Position numbers and translations under genes: made by a program
Part shown: positions 739-55,435 of the stretch, one piece after another
How the letters are laid out: the number at the start of each line of letters is the position of its first letter
Position numbering within the stretch: position 1 is the first letter of the stretch
Notes under the pieces: model-generated
What the model saw: only the letters and a program-made list of their open reading frames with translations
The model's database searches: none
Told to the model about the DNA's origin: nothing
DNA from: Bilabrum cf. latius
Taxonomy: Eukaryota
Assembly: GCA_965178125.1 (NCBI GenBank)
Contig: OZ237756.1
Location: forward strand, 930,001-994,000
Direction: 5' to 3'
Length of the DNA: 64,000 nucleotides

Positions 739-3700
739 TCACAAAACCCCTGGGCTACCGTCTGTGTTGCCTAGCATCGCGAGGTTTCCTCTGGCATGAC
801 CCCCTACAGTTGCTCTATCTGAAGCATCGGCTGCGACTGAGCCGCCACGACTGTACTGGCCGGTGTGCATGTGCCGGGCAGGGTCAGCTGTTCGTTCGCG
901 AACGTTCAGCTGATACTGGCGTGATCTTGTGATCGTCCGGCGAGGTGTCATTCCGGTTCGAGTCTACACTGGGGAAAGAGAGAGATCAGCCCCTGCGCTT
1001 GACAGGACTAGCAAAGAAATACAGAAGCCGCCTTAGCCAGTAGCTTTTGTCTCTCCCACCCACCCAAGACTCGGCCAAGGGGGAGGCAGCCAAGAGGGCT
1101 GCCTGGGGATGTAGTGATTTGTGTGAATTGATTGACCCATTGGCAGGGAGTCGTTTCTCTGAGACGACGGGGCGCACCGGCCGTGCCGGCAGGGTTGCGG
1201 GCCAGTGGACCAGGTGACTCCGAGGCGGGAGCCCACCCCAGGTCCTGTGCCCCGTCGCTCTCTTTCTCAGCACCATTAACTGGTGGGTCTACACATTTGT
1301 TAATGAACTCCGAGCAAGCATTACAAGATCTGTCGCAGACTAAGCAGGACCTTACCTCTACTAACTTTGACGTGACCCCCCACAGTTGCTCTATCCGAAG
1401 AATCGGCTGCGACTGAGCCGCCACGACTGTACTGGCCGGTGTACATGCGCCGTCGCCGCCTACCCATGACCAGACCTGTACTATCACGAAGAATACGACG
1501 ACGACGGCCAAGCCGTGGAACCGCCAAGCCAACTGCTTCATCAGCCGCACCCCCAGCCTAACCCGAGTCCTGACGGGGCATCCTGCATATAGGGCACGTA
1601 CTTTCCCTACCCCTGTGCCTCTGCGCCTCAAACCACCCCTCAATGCAGTCCTTGTGGAACACATGCCCGCACTGCAGCGCCATAGGCTCGTGCTCACCCT
1701 CAGCATCCTTCACGTCATCTCCCAGACACACCAAGCACACACGATCATTATCGTCAGGGTCTCGCCCCTCATCCACCTCGCACGTGTCGGTGGTAGGCCC
1801 CACAAGCGCCCCGAGACAGGCCGCCCCGCCAGCAGCTGCTACTGCTTGCTTCAGCTCTTCTGACCCTGCAGCAATATTCCACAGGGCCCCAGCGGCCCAA
1901 GCTGACTCGATTCCCGCTCTCGATCTTTGCATAGCAACAAGTGCAGCCGGAACACCTGCATCGACAAGAGCTTGCTTGATGTCAACATACCCACGAGATA
2001 GGCTCAGGAGAGACCTAGCTGCATGTTCAGCCCCCCTTCCGTGGCTTGACTCCAGCAGGTTCACCAGACCGGGCAACGTGCCTGCATCCACGACAGCCTG
2101 CTTGAGAGCGTTTGATCCGGTACCAACACTCATGATGACCCTTGCCGCATGTTCTGCCTCCTTCCCCTTGCTCGAGCCCAGCAACAGAACCAGCCCTGTC
2201 AATGCACCTGCATCCACGACAGCCTGCTTGAGAGCGTTTGATCCGGTACCAACACTCATGATGACCCTTGCCGCATGTTCTGCCTCCTTCCCCTTGCTCG
2301 AGCCCAGCAACAGAACCAGCCCTGTCAATGCACCTGCATCCACGACAGCCTGCTTGAGAGCGTTTGATCCGGTACCAACACTCATGATGACCCTTGCCGC
2401 ATGTTCTGCCTCCTTCCCCTTGCTCGAGCCCAGCAACAGAACCAGCCCTGTCAATGCACCTGCATCCACCACAGCCTGTCTCAGGCTGTCCGATCCAGAG
2501 GCAACGTTGAAAAGAACACGAGCTGCTTCCTCCACCGCGTTGCCCTTGTCAGAGCCCAGCAGCTCCACCAGCTGTGCCAATGCGCCGGCATCCACCACCG
2601 ACTGCTTCATCGCATCCGATCCAGCGGTGATGCTTACGAGCGCGCTAGCTGCCTGCTCAATCTCTGCGCCGTTGCTGGATTCCAGGAGTGCGGCCAGCTT
2701 GGGCAGCACACATGCCTGAACAGCTGCACGCCTAGCTTCTTCGCAGCTCGCACATACTTGCTGTAGCACGAACGCCCCCATCCTTGCGCCCAGCATACAT
2801 TCGTTATCAAGGCTCTTCACAATCCGATTCAATTCACCGTCTCTTGACAGCAGTTGCGCTGTTACAGCAGAGATGGTGCTATTCACGGCCTATTTTACCA
2901 CTGCAGGAGTTTCCTGGTCCGAACGACCTTTTGCGTTTGCGACCAGCCGCCACAGGATCGCGTAAATACCATCCCAGTCTCCCAACGCGCGAAGGCCATC
3001 CACCTGTTCTGACACTTTGGCAACGTCTGTCTCGCACATACCGCTGCCAGCCGTTACAGGAGACACGTGTGCGCTCACGCCCTGTGAAGAGTAATGCCCC
3101 CTCCTCGATCGCAGCACCTCCACAGCCTCTTCTACACTCGTCCTGTCTCCAGGGTCGATGCGCAGGAGGCCACGCACCATGTCAGCAAACCATCGAGGAC
3201 ACTTCACCAGTGCACCAATAGACGCCAGCGGACTGCATGACTGCAAATCACATGCCAGCTCTCCTGGTTTAGTCTTGGTGCCCTCCTGCAGTTCAGCAGG
3301 ATACGAGTCCCCGAACGGGTGCTGCCCTCCCGTGGCCAGCTCATGCAATAGCACGCCCAGCCCCCATGACGCCTGCTTGCCGAAAGGCACCACAGCTGAA
3401 TCATCACCTGCCGCCCCCTTGCTCCACCCGTCCAGCACCTCAGGGGCCAGATGGGCCTGGTTGCCGCCCAGCCCGTCACCGGTTGCCCGGAGATATCTGA
3501 AGGTGACCCGATTCAGCACCGCCTCCACACTAGGCCGGCCTGCAAACATGCTGGCATCACTACCTGCGCCAGTGGCCGCGGCAGTGGCTCTCGCAGGGTC
3601 AGATGAGGATGATGCAGCAGCCTCTGGATACACACGCAGCGAGCACCCCAGGCCAGTCAGCACCGCACGACCCACCCCTTCCGGACCCCCCTTCGAGTCC

Positions 3701-4375
3701 CACATCACGTTGTCCAGCTTCAGGTCACGGTGCACCACCCCGTGCTGGAGCAGGTGGTGCACGCCCTCCGCAATGTCAGAGAAGAGCTGGATCAGCACGT
3801 CGTCAGGCATGTATCCGGGCACATCTAGGCTCGCGGCTGGATCCTCCTCAATCACCTCCAGGTGGTCGCACACCCGTATCTTAAACAACTCCATGCCCAC
3901 CATCCTGGCCTTCCAGGGCCGCAGAGGGGCGGTACTAATGGATGGCCCAGCTTCGCCGATACTGCCACTGCCAGCATGGTTGCACACCAAACTCGGATCA
4001 GGCAGCATCTCCACCATCCACAGGGGGGGGCTCACACACGCACTCGAATAGGACGCGAGCCACGTTGCGGTGCTCGGGCACGCGAGCGAGCACGTCGAAC
4101 TCTTTCTGGACGTCTGTCATTTGCTGACTGGATGTCGGTCGATCCCAGTTGAAGACAGCGGCCACCTGCACTTGATCGGGAACGGGCAAACCATTGCCAA
4201 AGCTGTCAAGCGAGCTGCGTTTTGGAGTCTCAATGCGGTACACAGCCGCCTGCTGCGTTGTCCCGTCCAGCACGCTGTCGATATGCAGGACCTCCTTTCT
4301 GCATGCTGGCTCCCTGCACTGATCCCATAACCAATTCGAAAGCTGCTATGTTTGATGAATTCGGCCTTGTCTCAT
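739..4375 (-). CDS. PINK1-like (pseudo)kinase + armadillo repeats + RING-H2 fusion protein (UAG=Gln; apparent +1 frameshift at G8 run 4023-4030; 3' exons uncertain)
   Basis: HRDLKLDN and GGNQAHLAPEV kinase motifs in ORF 2890-4035. This ORF is joined in frame via TAG 2890-2892 to ORF 1558-2886, which has 42-aa ARM repeats and a C3H2C3 RING (CLVC...CGHVFHKDC...CPIC). ATG at 4373-4375 is in frame with ORF 3998-4273 through one TAG. ORFs 1321-1527 and 739-951 are in the same frame, with a probable intron near 1290-1355. Confidence 0.7.
2081..2470 (-). repeat. Three essentially identical 126-bp tandem units encoding 42-aa armadillo repeats
   Basis: CCTGCATCCAC recurs at 2081, 2207, 2333 and 2459; peptide LKQAVVDAGALTGLVLLLGSSKGKEAEHAARVIMSVGTGSNA is repeated. 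Confidence 0.95.
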
Positions 4376-4783: not shown

Positions 4784-6217
4784 TCAGCCCCGCCGGACCC
4801 TCAGCTTGCTCGGTACCTCGCCCGCCCCCAAGCCCCGCACAGCCCACAGCCGCTCCGCCCTCGCCACCGGCCTGCCGCCGCACTTGAGACCCCTCGCCTG
4901 AAGCTGCTGCTTGAGTCCCTCAGCACCCAGTGACTCCAGCAAAGCATCAGGGGAGCTGTATGCCATCAGATCCACCGGGTCGACTGCACTAGCGTGGCAG
5001 GCGGAGGGCTGTGCTGCATCGTGGGTGCCACTCTGGTCGGTCCTTGGCCGTTTGCTGGCCGGGGCGTCCTACGGCGGGGCTGCGCGTTTGGCACCGGCAG
5101 CCGATCCAGCGGTGGATTCTGCGGCTGATCCCGTGCTGGTGGATGCATCTGCTCCAGCAGGTGCTGCTACCGCTGTTGCTGAGTCCTGGCGAGCCTCCCG
5201 CCCGCTGTTCCCCACGGTTGCCGTTGCTGCTGTCCCTGCTGGTTCGCCTAGCTCAGCTGGCATGCCTTGCGCTTGCGGTTCTGCTTCTAAATTTGCCTTT
5301 TCTGATTGCGCTTCTGCTTCTGCGGGATGGCACGGGGCCCAGCGGCGCCACCCGCCCCCCGCTGCCATCACGGCAGGCCAGAACTGATCCGATCCCTGGG
5401 GCTGATCCGATCCACCAGAGCTCGACACCTCCCCAACTGCCATGCCCTGCTACGGGGGGTGGGCAAAGGGGCATAACCCCACATTGACCACCACCGCCTC
5501 CCCAGCCTCCACGGATACGGCAGGCCGCAAGGACACGCCCGGCCGATCCTCGCCCAGCGCGCCGGGGGCCCAGCCAAGCCATTCCCCCCCGAGACTGTAA
5601 CCCAGACGAGCACCCCGTCCACTCGTCACACCGTTCATGTCGACCCACACGCCCAGCACCTCGCCGGCACGCCACGGACGGCCGAACGGCACGGCGGCTC
5701 CTGCCGCCCACGCCTGTCCCCGGGCGGTGTCAAACCCGTGTGACGAGTGCCCGTCCCCCACCCCCTCCTGTTCCCTGCTGCTGCACTCCCGCGGCAGCTC
5801 GGGTGCCGCCCACCCCGCTTGGCACAGACCTCCCGTGAGCGATGTCACTTCGTAGTACCACCTGCCCGCGGGGGCTGCGCACTCGCCCGCCCACACCGTG
5901 GGGAAGGCACCAGTAGCGTGCACTTCTGCTACGCCCATGTTGCTGCTGCTCGCCGGCCCCTGCTCCCCCCCTTCGCTCGCTGCGGCACCAGCCCCATCAC
6001 CAGCACTTCCGCCAGCGACATCATCCTCATCGTCTTGCTGCCACGAGCCGAATCGAACATCCACATCGCACTCGTCACACAGGCATTCCAGCCAGGTTTC
6101 AGGAACCGAGGCAGGTGCCGTGCCAGCCGCACCACTGGAAGGTGCAGCAGCCTGGGCGCTGGAAGCAGAGGCACAGGCAGAGGATGCTGGTGCTGATGCT
6201 GCTGGTACTAGCGCTGG

Positions 6218-6273
<56 letters not shown>

Positions 6274-7267
6274 CCGAAGTCGAATCGGTGGGCAGCTGCG
6301 GTGCCAGGCCAGGTTTCGTATCCGAGTCCACGCCCCCCGCGACCAATTCCGGGTCCTCGAGACCTTCGATCGGGGCCAGCGAACCCGCCAGTGAACCTTC
6401 GTCCAGCGAGAGACTCTGCTCCACCCCCATCCCGCGCCGCACAGCAGCCAGAGTGGGGTGTTCCCTTGCCCCTGCCCCTGCCCCTGCTCCACCCACACCT
6501 CCCAGCCCACCGCCGGTCTCCATGCCCCTTGCCGCCTGCTGCACGTAGCTGTCCTCCGCCTGGAGACGGGCCGCCTTCCTCGCGTCTCGGTCAGCCTGCT
6601 TGCGCGCGGCGCCTCTTTCCTGGTTCCGCAGCAGCCTGGCTTCCCGGCGCGCCTCCCGCTCCCGGACTCTCGCGCCCGACCCATCGGTGGCCTTGCGACC
6701 CCCCACGGCCTCCAGCCAGCTGGGCGTACCGAGATGCCAGCCTTCGATCCCAGCGGTTCCTCTCGCCTCCGTGTAGGCGCTGCCTAGCTTCTTGCGCCGG
6801 TCCTGCTCCTCCGGTGAAGCCCACCGGCGCAGACGCACCTCGTTGTTCACGTGGCGCAGCCGCCGCCCGTTCAAATCTCTGCAGGCGCCAAAATCAACAA
6901 TCTTGCGAGCGAAGCCAGTTTTAGATTCCCGCTTCAGATTTGCCGCAAAACCGCCCTTTCCACCGAGAAGGCTTGCCCTCTCTGGCACGACTGATATGTG
7001 AGCACATCTGTAGCAACCACTAGTGTTCGAAGGGTCCGCGCTCGCTTCCTCGATGCTGTTATGAATTAACACCTTTAGTGCAACTTGCAGAAGGCCCCGG
7101 TCGGCTAGGAGCCGCCGCGCCAAGTCCAGAGCCGTAATGCGCAATACCTGCCTAGTGAGCGAAGCCACCTCTGTCCGGTGAAGCGATGGCTCATTGAGCA
7201 AGCCTTGAAGATCAATAAAGATCTCAGGCATGATTCGCGATAAATCAGTGGGGAATGTGGTGTGCAC
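4784..7267 (-). CDS. SDE2: SDE2-like replication-stress/splicing factor with internal SPRY-like domain and C-terminal SAP domain (5' end uncertain)
   Basis: LLGGKGGF...ACRDLNGRRLRHVN (SDE2 signature); GRWYYEV...CQAGWA...GVGD...SHGFD (SPRY-like); LGAEGLKQQLQARGLKCGG...RAERLW (SAP). ORFs 5450-7267, 5069-5443 and 4784-4975 are one frame joined by TAG at 5450 and 5069; ends TGA. Confidence 0.8.
6218..6272 (+). repeat. (GAT)n microsatellite encoding poly-Ser in SDE2
   Basis: perfect trinucleotide run. Confidence 0.95.
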
Positions 7268-7789
7268 GATGAAATCACGCGATTCGGTGCACTTTCTGAG
7301 GTCAATATCCGGAGTCGAAAATTAGCTTGGCCAACACCGACTTCAACCGCATAGACTACGCCAAAGGATGCCTCGCCGTGATAAGCGTGACGCGAAATAG
7401 TTCGAAAGCGTACTTCTCCAGCAGCTGGAATCGAAGGCTGGAACCCAGACTGTGGTTCTTGTTGCTAGGGCTGGTGTGAGACCATTGCAATTCACGAACA
7501 GCTTCAATTGCTCCTCCAACAATGCCTCACATCATCATGCATGCACGTATACAACCCTAAACGAGCAGTATGATTGGAAAAACATGCATAAATAGAGTTT
7601 ATCCTTCGTTGGAGAGATCTCTTCCGGAACTAGCGGAGCACCGAGCGCACTTGCAGTTCGCAGCAGCTGCAGCACTGCAGCTGCTGTCGCATCTGGCAAC
7701 TCTCAATGTGAACGTGAGCACGTATAAGCACGGACTGATGACTAAAATCGCTTGGTATGCCGCACCTAAACTTTCGAATGGTCCTGCAG

Positions 7790-9750
7790 TCTCTGCGGCG
7801 CAGTCCGGAGCGTGTCGGAGTGGTTCAACCTGCAGACTGCAACGAGTGCGTCAGCTGAACATAGCAAAGACACCACTTTGGCGTCAGGATCTCTTATGCC
7901 TAGACTTGTTCCTATGGCACCGGCAGGTACTGGCACATTGAGGGCCATTGCTGGGTCAGCCAGGCGCAATGCTGCAGTTGGTGGGCATTGCGGACCGACG
8001 GAAGCGCTGCAACACGCAGAGCCAACCTCAGCAACAGCCCCGAAAAAATCTGTCCGATTCGTGAAAGGCAGTGATGCGAAGTCCGTGACGGTAAAAGGAA
8101 AGAAGAGGAAACGAGATGAGGCCCTGGTCACCTCAACATCAAAGAAAGAATCTAAAAAAAGCAAACGATAGAGCAAAAAAGCAAGAACTAGCAGTTGATG
8201 AGGCATATTGTAACTGGGAATTGAAACAATGTTTATTCATTTTCAAGCTACATGGTTCGCGGTCACAAAGCATCAGGGTATCCATAATCATTTATTTGCG
8301 AGTCAATTATCTTCCATCGTATCTGCACATAAATAATTTTAATGAAGCCCCAGACGTTATTCTTGACAATGACTTTACTTAGTCACTACATCTAATACGA
8401 TTGCACATCTCGTTAATACTACAGATTGAACCACTTCGTACCATGATTTAGGCTGGTGGAACCTTGTCGAGAACTGTTGCCAGAAAAGTTCTGAGGGAGC
8501 CATTTGGTGTAAGCGGTGATCTTCTCATTGAAATTCTGACAACATTTGATTGATATCATCCACGAATTTTAATACATTAATGTTATGGAGACCAACTAAA
8601 TGAAAGCGGCGATCTTCTCCTAACACTTTCGTGACTTCGATTGGTATGGTTGAACAGCATCTTTACCCTTGTAACCGACAAACCTATGAACAAGTACCAT
8701 ACAAAATGCAGAACACAAATATTAATTGTTATAATATATTGTCAAACTTATTCCTTATTATCGTATACACAGTTCATGTTTCTTGTTAAATATCAAGTTG
8801 TTGTTATGATAAAAGCAGCTTAGGTTACTGATGCAGTGATGACACGAGCGGTCTTATGACGGTATCCTTATGCAGTTAAATTACAGACACCAAAGTATAT
8901 CGGTTTATTAGTACCAGTCTTGACTTAATATTGTGACTGCTTAATATATCGGTATAAATAAAATGGAGCGACTTCTTAACAAAGAAGAAGTATTTCCTTC
9001 ACATGATGCTAATGACAGATTGTGGCTTGTATTACAATGAGAACGAACAGCTGTTGCCGACACAATGACTTGCCAATAAATTGCTTTTATAGGTCAGAAG
9101 TTTGCTATGCCAGAGCTGATCGTTACCATTGGGTATTGGTGATACTATCTCTCAGCACAAAGGGTCGAGACATTCTCATGTACATCTCCATGACTTGCTG
9201 ACTCATCTAGGAAAGATTGAGCTCGTCAATATCGAAATTACAATATTTTTGATTTCAAATTCTTCTTTTATGAACAACCAAGAGAATAGACAGTAACATA
9301 GACAAGTATTATAATTTTGATATCTATATATGTTCAACTCACCAGAGCATAACATTCTCTGCGGCGCAGTCCGGAGCGTGTCGGAGTGGTTCAACCTGCA
9401 GACTGCAACGAGTGCGTCAGCTGAACATAGCAAAGACACCACTTTGGCGTCAGGATCTCTTATGCCTTAGGAAAAAATCTGTCCGATTCGTGAAAGGCAG
9501 TGATGCGAAGTCCGTGACGGTAAAAGGAAAGAAGAGGAAACGAGATGAGGCCCTGGTCACCTCAACATCAAAGAAAGAATCTAAAAAAAGCAAACGATAG
9601 AGCAAAAAAGCAAGAACTAGCAGTTGATGAGGCATATTGTAACTGGGAATTGAAACAATGTTTATTCATTTTCAAGCTACATGGTTCGCGGTCACAAAGC
9701 ATCAGGGTATCCATAATCATTTATTTGCGAGTCAATTATCTTCCATCTTA
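7790..9750 (+). repeat. Dispersed direct duplication (about 7790-7900 + 8042-8320 repeated at about 9356-9750) in an AT-rich island
   Basis: Identical text TCTCTGCGGCGCAGTCCGGAG... and GAAAAAATCTGTCCGATTC...CTTCCATC in both places; the second copy lacks about 140 bp of the interior. Confidence 0.9.
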
Positions 9751-10202
9751 TCTGCCGTTAATTTTTATACCATTCTAACAGTCTACATTCTTTGTCCTCC
9801 TCACAAGAGCATAAATGTAGTATTGCATTGGTTTGAGGACATCAATTGAATTTTGGAGGTGTTTAAGGGAGAAGATCGTTACTTTCACTCACTTGCTGTC
9901 CGGGACATGAATGTATGGTAATGTTTGCATGATATCAAACGTATATTGATTGGGCTTCCTAACATATTGGGATTATCAGCTGAATATCATTCTACTTGTT
10001 CCAAAATACAAAATGGTATCAAAATGGAACGCCATGTTTGATTGAATTCTACACAATGACAACACAACGCTGAAATATGACAATGTAATTTGTGGAATTG
10101 AACTTATAAATCGATAATCTAATTGTCCTCGGTGGTTGATTTGGAAAGCGAATTGCAGAACAACCATCAAATAAAATGATTCTTGTGCGTGCATTGCCAC
10201 GT

Positions 10203-13200
10203 TCATAGAACAGACTCTTCGTTTCCAGCTTCGTGGTGACTATGAGATCCTGATATGCCAGCAGATACTGCCTTTGGATCTGAGGCTGCGAATCCTACAT
10301 CACTGGCTCCTGTTGCTGGCGACCCTCTTGATACGCCACTAGCGATGAGTCTGGATTGCTTATCTCCAACGCTGCGATCGTGGCTCGTCCCAGCGCTTGC
10401 AGCCGGAGAGCCATCAGTAGTCTTCGGTTCCTTGGCAGCCTGACTGGGTCCCCTCCGGACATTGCGGGCTCGAGCACTGGCCTCTCGGTCGATCTAGGAC
10501 ATGCGGAGGGGTCGCACCGCACTGCTCCCGGTCCCCCTTGATGTCCCTGAGACCGATTGCTATTGCTACGAACTCCATGTCTCGACCGGCGACTAAAGAC
10601 CCTGTTCACCGGAACCAGTAGCGCCGTGGATAGAGGGTAGGAGCACACCAGCCCCGCTATTGGTTGGCTGTGCTACTCCACTGCCTGCCTTGCCCTCATC
10701 TTCGCCATTGACCTTGTCTCCGTCCCCGTCTGCCCCCACCCCCAATCGGCGGCCGCTCCGGGTCACGATGAACTTGGTTGGGGGTGCCGGGAGCCGAGCG
10801 GAGCCTCCCTATGACGCAACGTGCTGCAGGAACTTGTCCAAGTGGGCAGGATTCTCCCCCTCCTTCCCACCTCCCATGGCTTGCATACTGATCGCCCCTC
10901 TCCCCCGCTCCTCCCCACTGCCCTTCACTCCGCCTCGCGGGTTGCCTCCATCCGGACTCTCAGTTGAGCCGTTCGGGCCGGTTCGCGCCCCCCGTGCAGA
11001 AGCATCCACCGCGATGCCCCTCCCACTAGGGGACGCACCGGAGCGACTCGGAGGGGGGGTGTCCTGCTGCGACCTGCTGCGGCCGTGTCCCTGCTCCTGC
11101 GACCCGCTGCCCCCCTGTGACCGCATCAGCGTGGCCTGCGACGCTACGGGTGCACTGGGATCCGGCTCGTCCTCATCTTCATGCGGATTCGTCCCCTCTC
11201 CCGGGTCCGCCGTGGAGGCATGGCCCTGGCTGCTACCCCCGTGGGAGACCCTTGACTCCGATCCCGTCACGGATGCACCAAGTCCGCCTCCCAAAGCCCC
11301 TGCGCGCAGTCTATCCTCCTCCCCTGGGTGATCTCTCACCGGGGTGGCAGCGCTGTCCACACGACTCCTGGAGCCTGCTAAGCGAGGTCCTGTCGCATCG
11401 TCTACACCCGCCTCCTCCTAATCATGGCCCTGACCCTGACCCTCTCCTGGCGCGCCCTGTTGTTGTACATGTGGCCTGGGCTGAGACGGAGACACGACGT
11501 CCTGAATGCGGGAGGTACCGGTATCTCCCAAGTCCAGGCGGGGCTGGTGCCCCTTTCCCGAGTCCTCGCCCGCCCTCTCCTCATCTGCCTGCTCCTGATG
11601 CTGCTGGAGCCGGGCCTGGCGCACGGCAGCTGCGGCCCCAGATGCATCTCCTGTGCCCTTGCTCGAGATCCGCTTGTTTAGCTGCTTGCGCACCAGCCTG
11701 GCGCGGAACAACTTCTCGATGGCTTTGGCTGCCAGGAAGTTGTCCAGCCCAAAGCCAGTCATCTCGTCCGACGGCCGCCGTCGGAATGCGCGCCTTGCTT
11801 CCCGCCTTAGGCTGGAGGGTTCGTCTGGTGGGACGAAGGCGGGCTTGCCGTCCGCCGCCGATGTGACCACGAACACGCGCAGAGCGAGGGCCTTGACCAC
11901 GTGCTCGAAGTGCACATGCTTTCCCCTCAGGAGGGGGATGCGCAAGGAGGCAGCCCGCATCCTGAGCTCAGAGTCGGTGGCTTTGTAGTTGAGACCGAAC
12001 CCCATAGGCTCCGGCAGCCGCTGCAGCAGCTCCAGTAGCTAGTCAATCTTGATGCTCTCAGTGGCGTGTGGATCGTACTTCATCCACATGTGCAGGAACT
12101 GCTTTAGATGTCCCTCACCGAGGCGCATGCTGTCCTACTTGCCGCTCTCCTCGAAGCCCTCGATCACCACCGCCACGAACAGGTTCAGGAACACAAATGT
12201 GATCAGCAGAGTGAAACTCAGGAAGTAGGCATAGGCAGCTGCAATGGAACCACAACCGTCCACCGGCTCGCAACCCGGCTCTGCACCACTGTACTTGCAC
12301 ATGTTCAGCTTCTCATCGTACGGGATGTCCGCTAGATCTCTGCAACCATCCGGCTGCGCCCCTGCCGAGTACATGATGGCGTTCCATCCCTCTCCTGTGC
12401 TGGCCCGCATGAGGGTTAGCATGGCGCGGAAGAAGGTCTGGAAATTGGCCTGCTCCGTCAATGCCCCCTGCAGCTGCACGGTGGCGAACAGCTGCACCCC
12501 CATCACCGCGTAGATGAAGAACAGCAGGAACAGCAGGCCACCAATATTACCGAGGGATGGCAGGATCCAGTACACGGCACCAGCCAGCTGCCGGATCTGC
12601 TTGGCTCGCTTGACCAGCCGCACCACACGAGCGATGCGGAAGGTACGCACAACCGTGGCAACGCCACCCACGTCCACCCCGATGGCCGCCTGCTGCAGTG
12701 CGATGCCTAAGAGAGTGCCAACCACCACGGTGAAATCGAACGAATTCCACGCCCCGTCCGCCCCGCAGAAGTAGTCTCCCGCCCCGAGCCCAACGAGCTT
12801 GATGGCAGCCTCGACCGTGAAGATGCCCGCGAACACGTAGTTTATCACATCCAGCGCCACTGCGTACTGATGCGGCTGCCCAAAGAAAGCGATGGCCATG
12901 AAGAGGGCGTTCAGCACAATGCAGACAAGGATACCAGCCTCGAAATTCTCGCTCTCAGCGATCGACCGGCAAGTGCGGACACAGGCATACTCCGACGGCT
13001 CCGGCGCTTTTATGGGCCGGATGCGGATCATTTCCCTGCGGGTGCGAACCCACTCCCTCTGCTCAGGCGTCATGAAGATGCCACCCGCATCTCCGAGTCT
13101 CTCTTTTTCCCGGTTGAAGTTCTCGATGATGATTCCCACGAAGAGGTTGGTCACGAAGAAGGCACCTGCGAGGGTCGGGTGGGAGTGAAGCAAGGAAGCA

Positions 13201-37219: not shown

Positions 37220-37300
37220 ATATACAAGCTAGGTGAATAGAACAAGCAGCACAACTCTACATAATCAATTAGCGTGGGCTTACATCACAGGCCAGCCTCG

Positions 37301-43673: not shown

Positions 43674-46600
43674 TCAGCCCTCTGGCTGCTTGGGAGGGCG
43701 CGGGGCTGTCCTTCCCTTCTTGCTGGGGGGTCCGGGCCGCTTGCTGGCCCCGCTGGCAGGCCGGGACACACCCCTGCCACCGGGCGCACCCGACGCTGCC
43801 CGGGGCCTCACCTTGGTGCCTGGCTTGGGCACCTTTGGGCTCGCCTTGGATGCCGGAGGCGCGGAGCCCGACGAACCTTGGGCATGGGTATGGGCGTGGG
43901 CTGCATCTGCGCCAGCCGACACGCTCGCCCTAGTGCCGGGCTTGGGCTTGGGAATGGCCTTGTGGCCTTCGGCGGGGCCCGACTGGCTGCTGCCCGCTGC
44001 TACTGCCGGGGCCGATGGAAGCAGCGCTCCGGGCCAGTGCCTCACGCTTGCTCCGATCAAACCCGCTCGATCGGCCTCCCCTTCGTCGGCCCCTGCTTCT
44101 GTCTTGCCAGACCGCCGCGCCCCGGCTCCACCCCCGATTCCCCCCTCCTAACCGGTCTGATACTGCCTCAGGGGATTCTGCTTCACCCGCAGCTGCGCCC
44201 CCTCCCCGCCCAGAGAGAAGCTGCTGCCGGGCACCTGGCTGCCAACCAGCGATACGCTGGCTCCTTGCGACCCCCTTGCAAGCTGCACCGGGTTCATAGA
44301 TCGGCGCGCGCCCCTCCGTCCCCGACTCAGGGCCCGCCCCCTGCTTAGGCCACCGGACCCCGACCCCGCCATGCGACTCGCTTTGCCACCGGAGACCCGC
44401 ACTCCCAGCGAGGAGGGCCCGGCCTGCACTCCGCCTCGCCTCGCGGCCGCAATCGCTGCCCGCAGCAGCCTGCCTAGCCTCGTGTACGCCTCTGAACCCA
44501 GCAGCACCCGACAAGGGGCCTCCCGCAGCGTGGCTGGGTCAGCCCGCGGGGCAGAGGCGGCGCTCTCCAGTGCGCTTAGCGGGTTCCCCTCCTCCTCCTC
44601 CTCTTCCTCTTCCTCCTCGCCGCCTGCTTCGCCCCTTGCAGCAGCCGCCAGCACCGCCTCCAGCACTGGCACCGCCGCCTCCACTGGGTCTTCACTGGAG
44701 CCATGGACCACTTGTGCAGCCCCCTTCTTTCCATGCGGCTGCTTGCGCTGCACCAGGGTGGGGAGCAGCAGCGGGAAGTAGAACGTACCTCCTTCCTGCT
44801 CCTCCTCATCCAGCACTTCCACCCACACACCGATTCCCGCCCTTGCCTGAGCCGCGTGGGAGACAGGCGGACCACCTGCGGCCTCCAGCAGTGCGCCCGT
44901 TTGTGCTCTCTGCGCCACCAGCGGGTCCTCGATGTGCTAGGCCTGCGACGAGTCCGATGCCGGGCTGGACGAAGCTGCAGCACCTCCACTGGCACCGGAC
45001 ATCTGAGAGAACAATGACCCGAAGTAGCTGTGCACGCGAGACCGCCGCGTCGGCCCCGTGCTGGAGCCGGTCTGTGGTTCACTCCCCTGTGCCCCCGGGC
45101 CAGCATCGGCTCCATCACCGCGCATCAGCTCCCCCTGCTCCAGCGCAGCCAAGTCCACGTCGTTGAGAAGAAGGGCCTCCTCGTCTTCTCCCTCCTCGTC
45201 TGCCTTGGTCTCCTGCTCCTGACCCCTGTCCAAGCCCTTGCCCTTGCACAGGCCCTTGCCTGCGACTTCCACCATCTCCACCGCTCCCGCTGCCCCCGCC
45301 CTCCCCACGCCCTCCTTCGAGTCGGCACCCAGGCCCCCATGCTTGCCCACGCCCCCGGCGCGCTTCCCTGGCGGGCCCTTCCCCGGGGGGTGCTTGCCCA
45401 CAGCACCCGTGCCCTCCAACTGCTCCCGCTTCTGCCTGAGCATGCGCTTCTTCGCGGCGCCTCGCTTGCTTGGGGGCAGCGCCTTGATCTTGGCTTGCTC
45501 GGCCGGAGTCAGAGATACCTCCACGGGGTGCCCTGCCTCGGCTAGGGCCCGGCGCTTGGCCTGCAGCAGCTTCTTCTTGGCCGCCCCTCGCTTGCTGGGG
45601 GGCAGCTTGGCGAGCCTTGCTCTCTCCTCAGGGGTCAGCTGCAGGGGGTCGGCGGTCTACACCTCCTTGCTTTCGCCCGTCCTGCTGCCTGCTCTCTATC
45701 GCCCCCCCGCTCCCGCACCGCCCCCGCCCTGCTCGCCATCGGCCCCCTTTGCCTCCCCCTGCCTCGCCATCACCGCGCACAGGATCGCGATCGAGACTAG
45801 CTCGAACACCTTCTCCAGCACCTTGAGCCAAAACCACAGCCAAGGGTCGTCCTCGCTCGCGTCCTAGAATGCGGTCTGCCGCAGACCAAACACGAGCGCA
45901 AGCAGCAGCAGCACCACCATTTCCCCGATCAGCAGCTGCGTCATGCGCCACGCCTGCTGCGCTCTTCGACCCGCCTGTGCACCTCCCCCACCGATGCTCT
46001 GGATCTTGCAGATTAGCTGACCGCCATAAATGGCGGCGACAATCATGACACCTAGGTAAATCAGGAACGATACCACGCTTGTCACTGTTGCTGGCCAGGA
46101 GGGCTCGCGGATTGCTAGCTCAAAAATAGCATTGAGAGTTCGAACGCTGGAATACACGCCTAAAACGGCGTACAGGACTGGCTTGTATGCATCAATGTTG
46201 CTCCTTTGCGAGATGCTGCTCTAGAGCTCGACCCAGAACAGCACGATGAGCAGGAATGACATCAAGAAGCAGACGTCCTTGATGCACCTCAAGATCTCTT
46301 CGCCGATGCAGCCATTGTATAAGGCCGTGAGGTCAATAAATGACAACGCTCGCACTACAGCTCCTAAGGTAATTGTAGCTAATACCACTGCCCGGTTATT
46401 GTCGCATATATTCACCCGACGGCCTGGAGCTTTGGCTTGCATCTGCCCGTATATCAGGTATGTCCCGTACATGGACCAGACAGCCACAGCTGCGTACCCC
46501 AACCAGAATACTACTTGATACCAAATGTACCCGGGCGATTCTTCGACTTGCCGCTTCGCATTGTCAACCTCACACGCTCCGACGAACTCGGGACCAATCT

Positions 46601-46919
46601 CAGTCTAGTTCGGGCTTGAAGAGTTCGATCCATCTTGCAAGCGCCTTGACAGATTTATCGGGATATATGTGTACGCTTTCATGCGCTTCAACCCGGCCGC
46701 CTCCCATGCAATCGAGAAGATGCTGGAAATCGATTGGGTCCCAAGCGTTCCTTTCGCTTGGCGGCCACGTGCCATTCTAAGCTCGCCTGCGATGTCCCTA
46801 TGCGGACCCCGAAGATGATCTGGAATACTAAAACGGTTCGTGTCCGCACCATGCGAGGCGGCAAACCCTGGCAGCCCGACCACTATCACACTGAACACCA
46901 TAAGAAGAGTCTGCAGCAT
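43674..46919 (-). CDS. signal-peptide, 7TM-like (THH1/TOM1/GPCR-like) membrane protein with long cytosolic tail
   Basis: ORFs 46605, 46221, 45864, 44937, 44148 and 43674 share a frame linked by TAG; multiple TM helices (e.g. FLLIVLFWVEL); duplicated LTP.E.A....LPPSKRGAAKK motif in the tail; TGA stop. Confidence 0.6.
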
Positions 46920-47180
46920 GACTGCAAACCCCAGGCTCAGTCCGAAGCAGCTTCTCTTGATGCACGAACCGTAAAACAAGTGAACGAAGCCGGGGGCTGA
47001 GAAGCACTCGAAGGCGAAGTTCTGGCACAAGGCGCTGTATGCCTGAAACGAGATCGCCGCGGCGCTGGCACAAACAGATTTGGTCGCAACGTGATGGAGA
47101 TGCTGGATTGTTGTATTTAAGTTGCCAAGACAGAGCGAATGGTTTAATTAAAGCATCTACATTGCTTTGCATGTACTTGA

Positions 47181-47537
47181 TCATTTCTTAAACAACTTCC
47201 AAACTCCACCGTAGCGATAGTACGGAAACCTTGATTTATCTCCGTCAACCACTCCTCCAGATACCCTTGGCCAGCACTTTGTGCACACAAACTTCCAATC
47301 TCTTGATGCGTCTATTTGGCACCTAATGAGGTGCGGGTGCTTTCCTCCGCACAAGTGGCACGGCTTCATCATGTCTTCCGGTGTTCTGCTTCGCTTGGCT
47401 CGTGCTTCCTATTTTGCCGCTTTCTTACGCCGCTTCCGCTCAAGTTTCTTGGAGATTTTGGAAGAGTCGGTGCTACAGGTTCTGCTAGGTGCGCGGTCCA
47501 CATGCTCGGAAACCCAAGCACTGGAAGACGATGCCAT
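47181..47537 (-). CDS. small conserved hypothetical Cys-rich protein (CxxC...RC...W..VCxxCW...YRYGG.WK)
   Basis: ORFs 47409-47657 and 47181-47372 are in frame through TAG 47409; TGA stop. Confidence 0.65.
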
Positions 47538-47777
47538 AGAGCTACAACTGGGATGCAAAAAACGACGGAGCAGATTGGCTGATAACCACTTGTTATTCAT
47601 TCCATGGCCACTAGCCCAAATCAAGTCCTTGTTGTTAGGTAGCAGCAGCCACGTCATCGAAAATCAACGAGCCTGAACGAACTTCAGTTGAACTTTCTCT
47701 CCCCGCGGCGGCGCCCCCAACGGATCCATCGGTGCGCGCAAAGCACTCCTTTCCAATTTACTGAATAGGCTAAAATC

Positions 47778-49052
47778 ATGGCTGCTGCAGGAGGCATGGT
47801 AGCTGACCCTACCTTACAGAGTAGGGTAGATGCCTTAGAGGCCAGGATTCGATCCAAAATGGAAACGGAGACCGGATTCGGCACCGCGGCCGACCAGGCA
47901 TCGCATCTGAACAAGGTATTTAGGTTCTTTAACACTGACAAGGTAAGACAGTTGATACTCTTGATATGCACTCCTTTGCATTTTTCTCTCTCACTACGAA
48001 TGGCTGAAGCTATGGACTCAAGCTTTGTGTAGATCGCGGTAGTCCTTTTCTTCTTGTGTGCTTTTGCTTGCGCTGATGGGACCGCATTGACCTCTATGCT
48101 TCGAGTTCGAGCACCGCAGGATGGTTTTCTCAGCTTTGAAGAGTTTAGTGCGGCCATGGTGCGCTTGAATTTTGTGGGTGTGCAGAAAGAGCTCAGGACT
48201 TTGTTCGACCGATACGACAGCGACGGCAGTGGATTCCTTGCGTACGAAGAGTTCAGTGCGGGTCTCCTCGGCCTAATTCCCAATCCCAAGGGAGATCCTG
48301 TGGTCCGATCAGCGATCGACCGCATCCGGCACAAGATGGCCGAGCGCGGCTCTCTGAACTGCATCCGCAAGATGGGGCGGGCCTTCCGCATCATGGACGA
48401 CTCGAGGGACGGCCGGCTGGACGAGGAGGAGCTTAAGACGGGCCTGAGGGACTTTGGGGTGGACCTTCCAGACAAGGACATCCACGTGGTGATCAAGACC
48501 TTCGATCGGTCCGGGGACGGTCGGGTGAACTACGACGAGCTGCTGCGAGGACTGAGGGGCAACCTGAGCGCACGCCGGCGGGCCATGATCTAGCTGGCCT
48601 TTGACGTGCTGGACAGGGATGGCAGCGGGCAAGTCACGATCGAGGACATCCTGAGCGTGTATGATGCCTCGCATCACCCCGACGTGATGGACGGCAAGTG
48701 CACGGAGAAAGAGGCCCTGGGGGAGTTCCTGGACCAGTTCGACACGCTGGAGAAGGACGGCATCGTGACCAGGGAGGAGTTCCTGGACTACTACCGGGAT
48801 GTGAGCGCGAGCATCGACTCGGACGACTACTTCGAGCTGATGATCCGGAATGCCTGGAACATCTCGGGGGGAGAGGGGGCCATGGAGAACACGTCCAACC
48901 TGAGGGTGCTGGTGGTGCATGGGGACGACTCGCAGGACGTGGTGGAGGTCAAGGACTCGTTCGGGCTGGACCGCAGCGACGTGTCGGCGATTCGCAAGAA
49001 GCTGGAGGAGCAGGGTGTGGCAGACATCAAGGAGATCAAGCTGACTGCGTGA
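47778..49052 (+). CDS. calcyphosin-like EF-hand protein (intron about 47943-48119)
   Basis: Multiple EF-hands; GRAFRIMDD, LDRDGSGQVTIEDI...YDASHHPDV, EEFLDYYRDVSASIDSDDYFELMIRNAW (calcyphosin signature); TAG 48591 read through; TGA stop. Confidence 0.9.
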
Positions 49053-49923
49053 GGGCTTGCATGCACTCTGTGGTTGGTTAGCTGCGGGTGCACGTGCCTT
49101 GCTGCGCGTGTATGGACTATATGGACTCGGTGTGATTGCTCCACACGTGTCATACATCATGATAGACGACTTCGGTCATTCATACTCGTGCCCCTCGTCA
49201 CGGACCAGCAGCGCCCACGTCGGCCAGCTCCTGCTCGCCCGGGACACATGCTATATTTGTCCAACAGTGCGGTCAGGGTGGTGCTGCCACGAGCTTGCCG
49301 CCTCTATCCGGCGTCTTGTCGCTCGAGATGCCTCCAACCAGTCATCGCCTGTCCCATCCTAGCCGACACTTCGCCCCCGCTTCACGCCGAGCTGCCACTC
49401 AGGGGGTATCGCTCCGGCAGTCTCGCCGCACCTAACTCTTGCTATCTTGGACCAAGACTGCGTCCCGGCACCCGATTTGTATGTATCCGTGCATACTCTT
49501 GGCAAAGATATGGCACGAACCCCGCTAAGCGCTTCCATCTGTCGAACGACGGAAATTCCAACAGTTGCAGCAGCTGGAGGTACCATATCGGGACTAACAA
49601 ATGACAAAATTGTGTTTGTACTAGCTACATGAGCTGCGCGCCCATTGCTCTTGTCAATAGCCGAGGCAGAGCTTGCTGCAGAGCTGCCCTGGTCCGTTAC
49701 ACTGTTGCTCTCCGGCTTACCCTTCGTTGTATCAGCTTCGCTGGCACTTTGAACACCCTATCGACGGCGAGTCTACCGGGGCATTCGCCCAGTTCATGCA
49801 GAATCTAGTCAAGGACGGACGGATGGTTGCTTCGTCCGGCGGCGGAAGATTCCGAATCGGCCAGATTTGCCGGTCCATGTCCAGGAACAGTACTCGCCCG
49901 GCCGGAATTCCTCAAGGTTTTCC

Positions 49924-51320: not shown

Positions 51321-51513
51321 TCGGCTGCAACAGATATACGTGTAGGACGCCACTCACTCGTCATGCGGCCAACTGATTGTCGGCCTGACCGAGCGACACA
51401 AAAATTTAGCCCGCGCCACATCTACTCGGAGCCTCAGGAAATCCACGTGCTCGAAAGACGCCTTCCAAGGCTCCCAATCAGGTGTGTTTGGAATGGCATT
51501 CTAAGCATTAAAT

Positions 51514-53382
51514 ATGGATGCGGTCAGTAGTCCTGCCAGGCGGGCTCGTAGACGAAGGAGACGGAGACGCGGTCCAGGCCAATCGGGTGCACAGACTGGT
51601 GCGCCTGCTCTGACACTTGGGGGTTTACTATCCAGCTCTCTGGCTGGGCATGATAAACAACCTGCAAAGGTGCACGATTCCAACCTGTCCAGACCCCATG
51701 GCTTGGCAAAAGCACCGGCGATTCCGAAAGGTGGCTCAAGCCGGTTTCGAATCAAACCAGCGTCTGCAGAAAAGCATGGTGGTCACGGCGGTAACCCTGG
51801 CAGCGCCTCGAGAGTAGTTGTCTAGTCCAGACGCAGGAAACGCGCATCTCCTGTTGCAATCGATATGCTCCGAGAGAGGCTCAACAGGTGGGCGACGAAC
51901 AATCCAAAAGCAATGTCAGCTGCGCTAGAGCACTTTGCGGGCAGGCCTGCGGACTCGCGCGGGTGCCAAGAGCTCCGTGAATCTATGGCTGATGTCGACC
52001 GGACAGATTCTGAACAAATTGCCAAGGTTGTTGCATGCTTACTGCACTATGGTGGTTTGACGAGAAGTACCAATGTGGCAGCAGTCCGATCGATCGTTCC
52101 TTGGATCCCTACTGCTGGCTCAGATTAGCGGGATGCCGTGTCACATCACCCACCAGATATGTACATGGTGGGCAGTGTGAACATTGAGGTGGCAGCTGCT
52201 GCCTCATCTGGCCCTACGAAGCCAGCCGGAGTCAAGTCTACCCGTGGAGTTCACGCTGCATCAAACAAGCTGTCCCTGCACCTACCTGCCTCAGTCATTC
52301 GCCTAGAATCGGAGGCGCTCATTGCCGCAGTGCAAGGTGTATCGTCCACTAAACCGCCGTGTGCGACCGTTTGTCTGGTACATGCAGGAAAGCCCACTGC
52401 AAGCGCCGCCCCAACTGTGCCGTGTCCTAGCCCCCATGCAGGGTCATCGGGCAGTGCGCCTGCTGGTCCAGCACTGGAACTGCAGCCGAGCACAGGAAAG
52501 GAACTATGCATCCACATGCCCCTGCAGGCCCCGCTGCTGGCCGCCCCGTTGCCCCCGCACCAGGTGCGACTCCGGTGTCCCCATCAGCTGTCCGCCGCGC
52601 TGGATGCCGCCGTCGAGGCCATGCTGCGGAGGGTCCGTCGGTTGCAGTGGAGGGCGGAGCAGAAAGACCTGGCGGCAGCGAGGCTGAAGCCAAGGTACGT
52701 GGCTGGGCTGCGGCAGGCGTGCAGTGCTGTGAGAACGGGCCGTGCTCTGCTGGTGGTGCTGGCTCCAAACACCAAGGGTGGAGACGGGAAAGGAGCCATC
52801 GGGAGCGGCCCAGGAGATGGCGCCGAGGCAACTGGAGCAGCTTCTGGTGCGGGTGCATCTGACCCGATGCATGCCAGCCTGGGTGCAGACCCAGGTCCTC
52901 CTCAGCAGCCTCCTCTAGCAACGGGTGGCATGGATGGCAGAGTCCGTGCCTTAGTGCAGTCCATTGTAGCAGCGCAAAACGACGAAGCAGCTACGGCTGC
53001 CTATGCTCTGTCGACCGGCAAAGGTCGTGCTGCTGCCCTGCGCAAGGGCACCGAGTGCATTTGCGCCCTCTCAACGAAGCGAATCGCTAGGGCGCTGCAG
53101 GACGTAGGAGGGGGAAGGCGTGCAGGAGATGCGGCTGCGGGCAGATCAACAGGGGGAAGGCAAGCAGGAGATGCGGCTGCGGGCAAATCAAGGCGAGGCA
53201 GCCGCAAGCGAAGCGGGCCTGAGCACGTGTCGGCGATTGCTCTGCTGTCAGAGGAGCAGCTGGGCGCCCTGCCGCAGGTTGTGCGGGCCCTGGCTCGCGC
53301 CCTAGCTGTGGGTGGTGGTGGGCTCGCTGGCGCTGACGTCCCGGGTGCGCCGGTTGGTCTGTGGGTACACCACAAACTGTGA
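51514..53382 (+). CDS. SECISBP2: SECIS-binding protein 2-like (L7Ae domain)
   Basis: CPHQLSAALDAAVEAMLRRVRRLQWRAEQKDLAAARLKPRYVAGLRQ...LLVVLAPN...CALSTKRIARAL...VSAIALLS parallels the SBP2 RNA-binding domain. ORFs 51514, 51865 and 52138 are in frame via TAG; TGA stop. Confidence 0.75.
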
Positions 53383-53488
53383 CCTTGGCGATGGTGCTGT
53401 ACAGCAGATTGCCGTGGATACGTCTAGCGAGTAAATCAACTAAATCTTCGACTTGACTGAAAGTACGCGTTTCGATCTCTCCAGGTCA

Positions 53489-55435
53489 TTACGCGAGCTC
53501 GCACTTGCCACTGATGAGCAGCTGCAGCAGCTACTTCTTGTTCACCTTTCCCATAGCGTTGCGGGGAATTTCTTCGACCCAAACAACTGCTCGGGGGCTC
53601 TTGTACGGAGCCATCTGCCCCAGGGCCCACTCCTGCACCTCCTGGGCGCTTGCATTTGTGCTAACTGGGGCCCGCACCGCTAGGGCAAGCACCGTCTCAC
53701 CCATGCCTCTAGCCTCCAGTGCGGCGATGGCATGCCCACACGGTTCCAGCCCGCTACTGTCCCACTTGTCTCGCAGAGCCTATCGCACAGCTGCTGCATC
53801 TTCGTCTGGAATCCCGAGCACTGACACATCGCCGACAGCCTCGTGGTCCAGCATAACCGTCTCGGCCTCGAGCGCCGACACCTTGTACCCTCCTACCTTA
53901 ATGATGTCCGCCGATGCACGCCCCAAGATGCGCCAGCGACCCTTCAAATCCCGCGCCACCATATCACCGGTCTGGAACCACCTTGGGACCGCTTGCACCT
54001 GCTCCTGCGACATGGCGCGCTGTGCCGCCGGGCCATTGACACCCTCATAGGCAACCGTGCCAGCGGGCAGCTGCGACCCCTTCTTGAAGGCCTCTGCAGT
54101 CGCCTCTTCCCTGCGCCAATAGTGATCAAACACGCTGGGCCCAGCAAGCCACAGTTCCCCGGTCACTCCCCCCTCTTCCCCATCCCCATGCTGCACATCC
54201 TGCGGTCTTGCCTCGCGGTCAGGAGCCACTGCCGCCATCACCCCCGGCAGCGGCCAGCCCACCGACCCGAGCACCCTGCCTTCCTCGGGCTCGAATGGAT
54301 TGGACAGCGCCATGCCCACCTCCGTCATGCCATACCTCTCTAGCAGGCGGCCGCCCGTGCGCTGAGTCCACGCCCGGCCAAGGGCTGCTGGCAGTGGCGC
54401 TGATCCACTGAAGCACTACACTGCTGGGCTACGACCCCGGACATGCTCTTCTTTCAGCACATTCCCCGTCTACTGCAAGAGCTTGTGGTACATGGCTGGC
54501 ACTGCCATGAAGCGCGTGGGGGTGCACTGCACTGCAGGTGCATTGTCCTCCTGCCCTGTCAAAGCGCTCCACACCGTGTCCGGAGAGAACTTGCCCCTGC
54601 GCATGTCCACAGTGGCCCCCGCCCACATGGCGCACTGCAATCCGTTGATCAGTCCGTGCACGTGGTGCAAGGGCAGTGTGTGCAGCACGATGTCGCTGGG
54701 TTGCCACTGCCAGGCGTCCACCAGGGTGGAGGTCATGGCATCCAGGGAGGCATGTGTATGTACGACGCCCTTTGGTCGACTGGTTGTGCCAGAGGTGAAT
54801 ATCATGAGTGCCCCGCTGCCAGATTGCGCAACATGATCCGGCAAATCGTCATGTAGCGGGCGGGCGCTTACATGTGCAGCGTGCTGCTTATTCCACTGCC
54901 GCACTGACACATGCTTCGCATGCAGGTTTCGGGCAAGATCCTTGGCTTCATTGTAGCTGTTGCTAAGATCAAGAATGATTCCACTGCCCGAAGAAATTGA
55001 GGTCGTGGATGCAACTGTGCTCACCGGCACTGGAAGATTCAGATCCCAAACTCGGCTTGCAAGGGAACTGCTGCAGATAACCATAGCAGGATCTGATGTT
55101 GTTATCGCATACCCCAACTCAGATTGTGGGTGGGAGTCACACAGTGGGACTACCATAGCGCCAGCTTGCCAAACTGCCCACTGCGCTGCAACGAAGTCAT
55201 ACCCAGTTGCCAAAACACATACTCTTGGTGTCGCCTGCGCTGACATTTGTTCACTCTTCTTGATTCTAAGGTACTAGCTGATCTCTACGGCAAGCTGCGC
55301 CGAATCAGCTCCCAAGTGCTAGTAAGTAAAGGCATGGGTACGATCCAAATCAAGAATAGCTATTCTCTCCGGTGAATGCACCTGAGACAGTTTAAAGACA
55401 GTAGACATAGGTCTTGCTGGTGATTTGCAGAACAT
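53489..55435 (-). CDS. ACSF3: AMP-dependent acyl-CoA synthetase, malonyl-CoA synthetase (ACSF3)-like
   Basis: FTSGTTSRPKGV, LPLHHVHGL, SGSAPLP, LERYGMTEVGMALSNP, WFQTGD, GRASADIIKVGGYKVSALE, IPRNAMGKVNKK; several in-frame TAGs; ends TAA 53489. Confidence 0.9.

Follow-up and report, generated by a model that had tools for sequence, protein, structure and literature searches.

We analyzed a 64,000-nucleotide (nt) stretch of DNA from Bilabrum cf. latius (contig OZ237756.1 of assembly GCA_965178125.1, positions 930,001 to 994,000; hereafter the window, numbered from its first letter), for which a first-pass annotation had proposed a non-standard nuclear genetic code that reads UAG as glutamine (Gln) and uses UAA and UGA as stops (NCBI table 15). 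Under the three standard stops, the longest stop-to-stop open reading frame (ORF) in the whole window encodes 623 amino acids (aa). When TAG is read through, ORFs of 2779, 1157, 1055, 1048, 1000, 931, and 845 aa appear, and reading through TAA or TGA gives a maximum of 630 and 903 aa, respectively. Twelve large ORFs contain 78 in-frame TAG codons, and our 18 curated gene models (12,907 codons) include 83 TAG, 375 CAG, and 113 CAA, TAG making up 14.5% of the Gln codons. At least one in-frame TAG is present in 17 of the 18 models, which contain neither TAA nor TGA in frame, and no homologous region is interrupted by either codon. It should be noted that untranslated regions (UTRs) may account for some TAGs near the 5' ends of the raw ORFs.

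Pfam searches identified a Cav/Nav-type four-domain channel, a threonyl-tRNA synthetase (ThrRS), a D-lactate dehydrogenase (D-LDH) FAD-linked oxidase, a RabGAP-TBC protein (TBC), an SDE2 protein, a p24/EMP24 protein, and an AMP-binding protein that is ACSF3-like judging by the names of its homologues. These assignments, together with a calcyphosin-like gene, agree with names given in the first-pass annotation, whose SECIS-binding protein 2 (SBP2) is the one name only weakly supported. The largest ORF corresponds to the main exon of the channel (10203–18542, minus strand; 2779 codons; Pfam Ion_trans E = 4e-214; PDB T-type Cav E = 8e-172), which carries 21 TAG and no TAA or TGA before its terminal TGA. 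Translation of an upstream exon region (18621–19298, minus strand; Ion_trans E = 1.4e-9) revealed segments S1–S3 of domain I; because these sit in another frame, the TAA located between this region and the main ORF is intronic, and the earlier statement that conserved domains are free of in-frame TAA and TGA holds.

Beyond the channel, at higher coordinates, lies a block of genes. It includes a 1000-codon ORF with no assigned family (ORF1000; 23561–26563, minus strand; 12 TAG, TGA end), a 440-codon ORF (26965–28287, plus strand; 3 TAG, TGA end), and the cytochrome-type D-LDH gene (28511–30481, minus strand). The conserved part of D-LDH contains TAGs at 30073, 29782, and 28669, and its Pfam FAD_binding_4 (214–362) and FAD-oxidase_C envelopes enclose TAG residues 234 and 605, respectively. 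These are followed by a 133-codon gene with no assigned family (30594–30995, plus strand), with one TAG (30822) and a TAA stop at 30993–30995, and by an LSm-domain gene (31587–32049, minus strand; Pfam LSM; TGA end), the sole gene model without TAG, with introns at 31681–31765 and 31893–31976. The block ends with a Pfam-identified EF-hand protein (EF1; 32201–34051, plus strand; TGA end) and ThrRS (34052–37219, plus strand; 7 in-frame TAG, TGA end), in which TAG residue 961 falls within the HGTP_anticodon envelope. Genes here are closely spaced; the TGA stop of EF1 (34049–34051) directly adjoins the ThrRS-containing ORF in the same frame.

The TBC gene comes next (37301–40447, minus strand), the last of its seven in-frame TAGs (37306) abutting the TAA stop. 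Further along are a 209-codon gene (40630–41358, plus strand; intron 40791–40889; TAGs 40702 and 41065; TGA end), the p24/EMP24 (GOLD) gene (41541–42137, minus strand; Pfam E = 1.9e-38; intron 41934–42023; TAG 41723), a 334-codon membrane-protein-like gene (42345–43349, plus strand; 3 in-frame TAG, TGA end), a 1157-codon ORF of unassigned family (ORF1157; 43674–47147, minus strand; 7 in-frame TAG, TGA end), and the calcyphosin-like EF-hand gene (47760–49052, plus strand; PDB 3e3r E = 5e-39; intron 47941–48117; TAG 48591; TGA end). The gene for the ACSF3-like malonyl-CoA synthetase (53489–55543, minus strand) has six in-frame TAGs and a TAA end, and its AMP-binding envelope (56–476) contains TAG residues 75, 90, 358, and 376. 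Recognizable genes had been described as split only by in-frame TAG; TAG does split nearly all of them, but GT..AG introns of 84–177 nt split genes as well.

To gain insight into the fate of these codons in transcripts, we used public sequencing data. Twelve runs from seven studies contain at least part of the window, and four of them (X1, X5, X6, and X7, from three studies) were compared with window positions 29200–49199, and every letter agreed with the window in all four. X1 looks like genomic DNA, its 24-kb and 16-kb contigs being unspliced, and contigs of X5, X6, and X7 skip five GT..AG introns of 85, 84, 99, 90, and 177 nt, including those of the LSm gene, which are supported by contigs from all three runs. 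Of 34 TAG sites in this interval, 21 are present on the listed X5–X7 pieces, and 15 of these are covered by two or more runs, including the three TAGs of the 334-codon gene (X5 and X7). Four sites lie on contigs that are demonstrably spliced: 40702 and 41065 (X5 and X7), 41723 (X6), and 48591 (X6 and X7). These four sites are the hard transcript evidence. TAG 48030 of the raw calcyphosin ORF lies inside the 47941–48117 intron and is spliced out. X6 and X7 provide little or no coverage of TBC (37.2–40.5 kb) and of part of ORF1157, coverage of the p24 gene stops before its 3' end, and one X5 contig spans both EF1 and ThrRS.

Two contigs with unusual joints were rejected as products of splicing. 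First, an X6 contig joins 36571 to 36824, which as a splice would remove ThrRS TAG 36620. This joint has GT..GA ends, sides of 23 nt, a depth of 116 (X6 pieces nearby have about 7–11), and loose ends to left and right that are unrelated; an X5 contig crosses the region without a break. Given the non-canonical ends, short anchors, depth, and flanks, we read it as foreign sequence sharing two short motifs with the window. Second, an X5 contig joining 35199 to 43743 with a 21-nt side was taken as chimeric or foreign.

An exhaustive search with D-LDH identified an 87%-identical fragment of 189 aa, which we located on a 29-kb metagenome contig. The DNA retrieved from this contig (L001; 16,859 bp, 54.6% GC) is syntenic with the window from 23.5 to 37.2 kb, at 67–80% nucleotide identity, and provides six orthologous ORF pairs with 29–81% aa identity and 3,735 aligned codon pairs. 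EF1 is the best conserved (81%), ORF1000 is conserved at 39%, and the 440-codon ORF only weakly so (29%). The L001 ORFs contain 45 in-frame TAGs, their window counterparts contain 32, and no in-frame TAA occurs in the aligned pairs. In EF1, L001 has CAG opposite window TAGs 32438 and 32564, and the window has CAG opposite three L001 TAGs. With both directions pooled, Gln codons are the partners of TAG in 20/69, 17/45, and 14/28 cases as the local-identity filter is tightened, and the rates at which true CAG and CAA codons pair with Gln codons at the same filters are 0.29, 0.39, and 0.48.

We then assigned the codon by a likelihood test, with substitution frequencies measured on sense codons in these alignments. 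Gln received a posterior of about 1, the runner-up (Arg or Lys) being 32–46 log units worse. As a control, each sense codon was treated as unknown in turn, and 60 of 61 were called correctly (ATG was called Ile). Gln ranked first in all six leave-one-gene-out runs, in each direction separately, and in EF1, ThrRS, and D-LDH each taken alone. When all CAG partners were removed, Gln was still ahead by 14.7 units and the commonest partner became CAA, a codon two mutations away from TAG. A pyrrolysine-like reading was rejected, as Lys-type partners were 27–48 log units worse than Gln.

The differences between the two genomes also indicate that purifying selection on the protein goes on past the TAG codons. 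Downstream of the first TAG, EF1 shows 273 synonymous and 100 non-synonymous differences (89/60/325 by codon position) and D-LDH shows 244 and 175 (165/129/349), and differences in ThrRS are distributed 338/271/606 by codon position. Together with the TAGs kept in spliced transcripts, this supports the claim that UAG is a sense codon. TAG is shared by both genomes in two columns, both in ORF1000 (26362 and 25999), compared with 2.2 expected under free synonymous turnover among TAG, CAG, and CAA; the reassignment is therefore most likely older than the divergence of the two species. In the same aligned columns, CAA occurs 32 times in L001 and 13 times in the window, and TAG occurs 27 and 22 times, respectively. 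Since the code is also present in a related metagenome species, it characterizes a lineage and is not confined to one strain.

In addition, we compared the TAG positions with distant homologues, searching with TAG masked as X and aligning 120 sequences for ThrRS, 120 for ACSF3, 99 for Cav, and 149 for D-LDH. A Codetta-like column test on the 21 well-occupied columns among 31 TAG columns placed Gln first (posterior 0.996), and the corresponding control recovered 59 of 61 sense codons, missing the rare AAA and CAA. The ranking hinges on the column of ThrRS TAG 36620 (CATI-X-LDF), which is Gln in 120/120 homologues and CAG in L001. At D-LDH TAG 28669, distant homologues have Leu, Ile, or Val and L001 has CAA; this position is best read as a lineage-specific Gln, of the kind that can mislead a test based on distant sequences. 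The first-pass annotation had derived the Gln meaning from conserved positions. The meaning itself is supported, through the codon comparison with L001; the distant columns alone are not decisive.

Regarding termination, 17 gene ends are seen in the window, 13 at TGA, which is the main terminator, and 4 at TAA, and all six L001 ORFs end at TGA. In four of the six orthologous pairs the proteins end at the identical residue, three at TGA in both genomes (including ORF1000 and D-LDH) and one at a window TAA that corresponds to TGA in L001; EF1 also ends at TGA in both genomes. The TAA/TGA pair is the 133-codon gene, whose TAA is followed 16 nt later by poly(A) (an X5 contig has a poly-A extension after 31011), leaving a 3' UTR of 16 nt only; its L001 orthologue has TAGs 9 and 13 codons upstream of the stop and identical residues after them. 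The TAA of ACSF3 falls no more than 10 residues from the C-terminus of 119/120 homologues, with a TAG 13 codons ahead of it. If TAA encoded Gln, about 25 in-frame TAA would be expected at the CAA/CAG ratio of 0.30, and none was observed. The proposal that UAA and UGA act as stops is supported by the absent TAA codons, the TAA before poly(A), and the coinciding orthologue ends.

Taken together, UAG is present in frame in nearly every gene, is kept in spliced mRNA, and exchanges with CAG and CAA between two genomes. We consider it highly probable (roughly 90%) that UAG encodes Gln and that UAA and UGA are stops, the pattern of NCBI table 15. In terms of mechanism, a tRNA-Gln whose anticodon is CUA would decode UAG, and the release factor eRF1 would have lost or weakened its recognition of UAG. 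By wobble rules, a CUA-anticodon tRNA would read UAG and not UAA, which could decouple the two codons; the same logic, combining a CUA-anticodon tRNA with an eRF1 that ceases to recognize UAG, is set out in the literature (PMC11687900).

Several observations weigh against this interpretation. The evidence comes from 64 kb of window and 17 kb of L001, and not from a genome. ARAGORN found no tRNA genes in the window or in L001–L003, Rfam at gathering thresholds gave no matches in the window and L001, and no eRF1 gene is present among the Pfam-scanned genes of the window. In the likelihood test there are two weak exceptions, ORF1000, which taken alone favors Ser by 1.6 units, and a small gene with three sites, which favors Lys by 1.4 units. 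D-LDH TAG 29782 pairs with TGG in L001. As for the distant homologues, the column test alone is suggestive, not decisive: once the invariant ThrRS column is left out, the test no longer separates Ala (0.45) from Gln (0.30), and the near-invariant column of ACSF3 TAG 54418 is Leu in 117.7/120 weighted sequences. Mean Gln log-odds are −0.47 for TAG columns, −0.59 for CAA, and +0.75 for CAG; TAG columns are thus poorly conserved and behave like those of CAA and not of CAG, and TAG therefore occurs mainly at weakly constrained sites. On the transcript side, the RNA nature of X5–X7 is a program's guess supported by the spliced contigs, X5 is flagged "probably DNA," and only four TAG sites lie on contigs proven to be spliced. 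The absence of in-frame TAA is also partly by construction, as ORFs were delimited at TAA and TGA; the weight of this count comes from homology that is unbroken through the ORFs (e.g., 2,765 codons) and through all orthologue alignments. Finally, the TBC gene ends in TAG TAA, an arrangement that would accommodate occasional termination at UAG.

This last point bears on the alternative that survives best, although we regard it as unlikely, in which UAG is both a sense codon and an occasional terminator. The TBC end could be read as a UAG stop with a UAA backup, and the ends examined are only 17 in the window and 6 in L001, a small sample for detecting rare use. Even so, UAG is not needed as a stop in any of these 23 cases, and four of six orthologous pairs end together at TGA or TAA. 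Ambiguous codes usually deplete the ambiguous codon near gene ends, and here TAGs are found close to true stops with conservation continuing beyond them, at 9 and 13 codons in the small L001 gene and at 13 codons in ACSF3.

A reading in which UAG is decoded by near-cognate tRNAs with no dedicated suppressor, or with insertion of more than one residue, would amount to leaky termination and not to a clean reassignment. In its favor, the search of the window and L001–L003 gave no tRNA(CUA), TAGs are mostly at poorly conserved sites, and some have Trp, Lys, Leu, or Arg codons as partners. We judge it very improbable: with 83 TAGs in 17 of 18 genes, 21 of them in one ORF of 2,779 codons, a full-length protein would need efficient read-through, at every filter TAG has a spectrum of partners matching that of true Gln codons, and one TAG column is Gln in all of its 120 homologues.

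Less probable still is a table 6 code, with Gln encoded by UAA as well as UAG and TAA just rare through high GC. The literature reports this variant more often than any other (PMC5304391, PMC11687900), and GC-rich genomes disfavor TAA; nevertheless, the 12,907 codons lack the roughly 25 TAA that this code predicts, and TAA ends 4 of 17 genes, one of them shortly before poly(A), one opposite a TGA in L001, and one at the ACSF3 C-terminus. Explanations in which the TAGs never reach translation as TAG, whether through pseudogenes, RNA editing, removal by splicing, or errors of assembly or sequencing, can essentially be dismissed. Although 48030 is indeed intronic and the 36571/36824 contig would skip TAG 36620 (that joint looks like other sequence sharing two short motifs), the four runs of three studies match the window letter for letter, four TAGs are on spliced contigs, and L001 carries TAGs of its own in these genes, with selection continuing past them, in agreement with the first-pass annotation's rejection of pseudogenes and sequencing error.

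Reading UAG as Gln with UAA and UGA as stops raises the question of the lineage concerned. In a Cav tree (FastTree, 75 rows, 1,425 columns), the window sequence falls inside a clade of 34 rows (support 97) whose named members are all stramenopiles (oomycetes, Triparma, a chrysophyte transcriptome, and Cafeteria), as sister to the Cafeteria group (support 88). In a ThrRS tree, the window and L001 group together (support 100) inside a clade of environmental sequences, and the nearest named relatives of D-LDH and ACSF3 are scattered across supergroups. The lineage is thinly sampled, and the Cav result hints at a stramenopile affinity, as a lead from one gene tree and not a placement.

We also compared these features with those of known codes in which UAG and UAA differ in meaning. 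By the time of a 2024 survey, table 15 was on record from Iotanema spirale and three ciliates, namely Hartmannula sinica, Trochilia petrani, and Protocruzia tuzeti (PMC11687900, PMC5304391), and the handful of split UAG/UAA codes listed that year assigns UAG to Gln in these four organisms, to Leu in a rhizarian and some ciliate metagenome-assembled genomes (MAGs), and to Ser in Scotinosphaera (PMC11687900). In Iotanema spirale (Fornicata), as here, UAG alone is reassigned, to Gln, UAA serves as a stop, and only a minority of Gln codons are UAG (about 8% there and 14.5% here); in contrast, Iotanema is an anaerobic endobiotic metamonad with mainly UAA stops (PMC5304391), and the window has UGA at 13 of 17 ends and about 59–61% GC over most of its length. 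Iotanema is also unlikely as the source given the presence of cytochrome-type D-LDH and ACSF3 genes, whose products would be mitochondrial if, as their family names suggest, they behave as in other organisms.

The three ciliates share the same table, with UAG accounting for 18.5–31.8% of Gln codons (14.5% here) and internal UAG in about 80% of genes (17/18 here); however, 93.5–100% of their aligned genes end at UAA (PMC11687900), and termination here is mainly at UGA. Ciliate telomeres are of the CCCCAAA/GGGGTTT type (PMC11687900), whereas the window has TTAGGG repeats on a conventional multi-gene arm. A ciliate was ruled out by these repeats, by the multi-gene arm with spliceosomal introns, and by the high GC, which upholds the earlier impression of a GC-rich, non-ciliate genome. 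The aphelid Amoeboaphelidium protococcarum resembles our case in being a non-ciliate with a stop-to-Gln change, and some best matches here are chytrid-like fungi. It differs in having both UAA and UAG as Gln (cited in PMC5304391 and PMC11687900), UAA being a stop here, and an aphelid was ruled out by GC content (39.9–40.5%, PMC10608142 Table 1, versus about 59–60%) and by the Cav tree. The same assignment of UAA and UAG to Gln is reported for ulvophytes and hexamitids (PMC5304391, PMC11687900); an ulvophyte was rejected, as green algae are not among the closest Cav or ThrRS matches and TAA is a stop here. Finally, the rhizarian exLh and phyllopharyngean TARA MAGs likewise separate UAG from UAA, with UAG as Leu and UAA as stop (PMC5304391, PMC11687900). 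Two TAGs of the window lie in Leu-rich columns (ACSF3 54418 and D-LDH 28669), in partial likeness to these codes, but Leu is not a leading candidate in any of our tests and L001 has CAA at D-LDH 28669.

In this context, an independent reassignment is plausible. The fuller proposal, an independent UAG-only-to-Gln origin in an aerobic, GC-rich, UGA-terminating lineage, possibly of heterotrophic stramenopiles, with at least two divergent species, one of them known only from a metagenome, seems to us about evenly balanced between right and wrong. The code itself is known; what sets this case apart is the lineage, the GC-rich setting, the use of UGA as main terminator, and its presence in two divergent species. 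In the literature searched, which did not extend to subscription journals and supplements, we found no paper describing UAG as Gln in stramenopiles or in any other GC-rich non-ciliate, nor one on any nuclear stop-codon reassignment in stramenopiles.

Nuclear stop-codon reassignments are rare, and split meanings of UAG and UAA amounted to a handful in 2024 (PMC11687900). The reported Gln cases are in genomes that terminate mainly at UAA (PMC11687900, PMC5304391), and a GC-rich, UGA-terminating genome with UAG as Gln would test the need for the argument that "UAA is fixed as the preferred stop." On the practical side, standard-code gene callers will fragment nearly all genes in this organism and in related ones, and table 15 should be used for their annotation. 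As an example, the L001 D-LDH is present in public protein sets only as fragments of 189–192 aa, the 189-aa one stopping where the window protein continues with Gln. Because standard-code calling fragments its genes, the proteins of this lineage are under-represented in databases.

The remaining features lie mostly toward the two ends of the window. A possible SBP2 gene (51505–53382, plus strand; 2 in-frame TAG, TGA end) has a Pfam L7Ae match below the Pfam cut-off (E = 7e-4) and one PDB match (7zjw, E = 6e-5). This similarity suggests that selenocysteine machinery may be present, in which case UGA would have a second, site-specific meaning beside that of a stop.

Near the start of the window, an ORF identified by Pfam as a kinase/ARM-repeat/RING-finger protein (1321–4116, minus strand) has two in-frame TAGs (2892 and 1560) and a TAA end. 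It contains three identical consecutive copies of an armadillo repeat of about 42 residues, which suggests either a very recent tandem duplication or a collapse or expansion in the assembly. The adjacent ORF encodes the SDE2 protein, which also has a SPRY domain (4784–7321, minus strand; Pfam; 2 in-frame TAG, TGA end). Between it and the channel gene lies an island of lower GC (7400–10200; about 50%, compared with about 60% elsewhere) with duplicated segments. Here, ORFs 7770–8195 and 9274–9624 share a C-terminal Lys-rich peptide of about 50 residues, and 7561–7938 and 9274–9624 have another stretch in common; the island is possibly a repeated or mobile element.

At the opposite end, the chromosome-end region (55870–63905, plus strand) consists of six TTAGGG arrays interleaved with arrays of a 155-bp satellite. 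This alternation could be a real subtelomeric structure or an effect of the assembly. All six TTAGGG arrays are perfect, with 17 to 146 copies each, and the last three units show a periodicity of about 1,306 bp. There is no single terminal telomere, and the window stops 95 bases beyond the last TTAGGG array, in satellite-like sequence.

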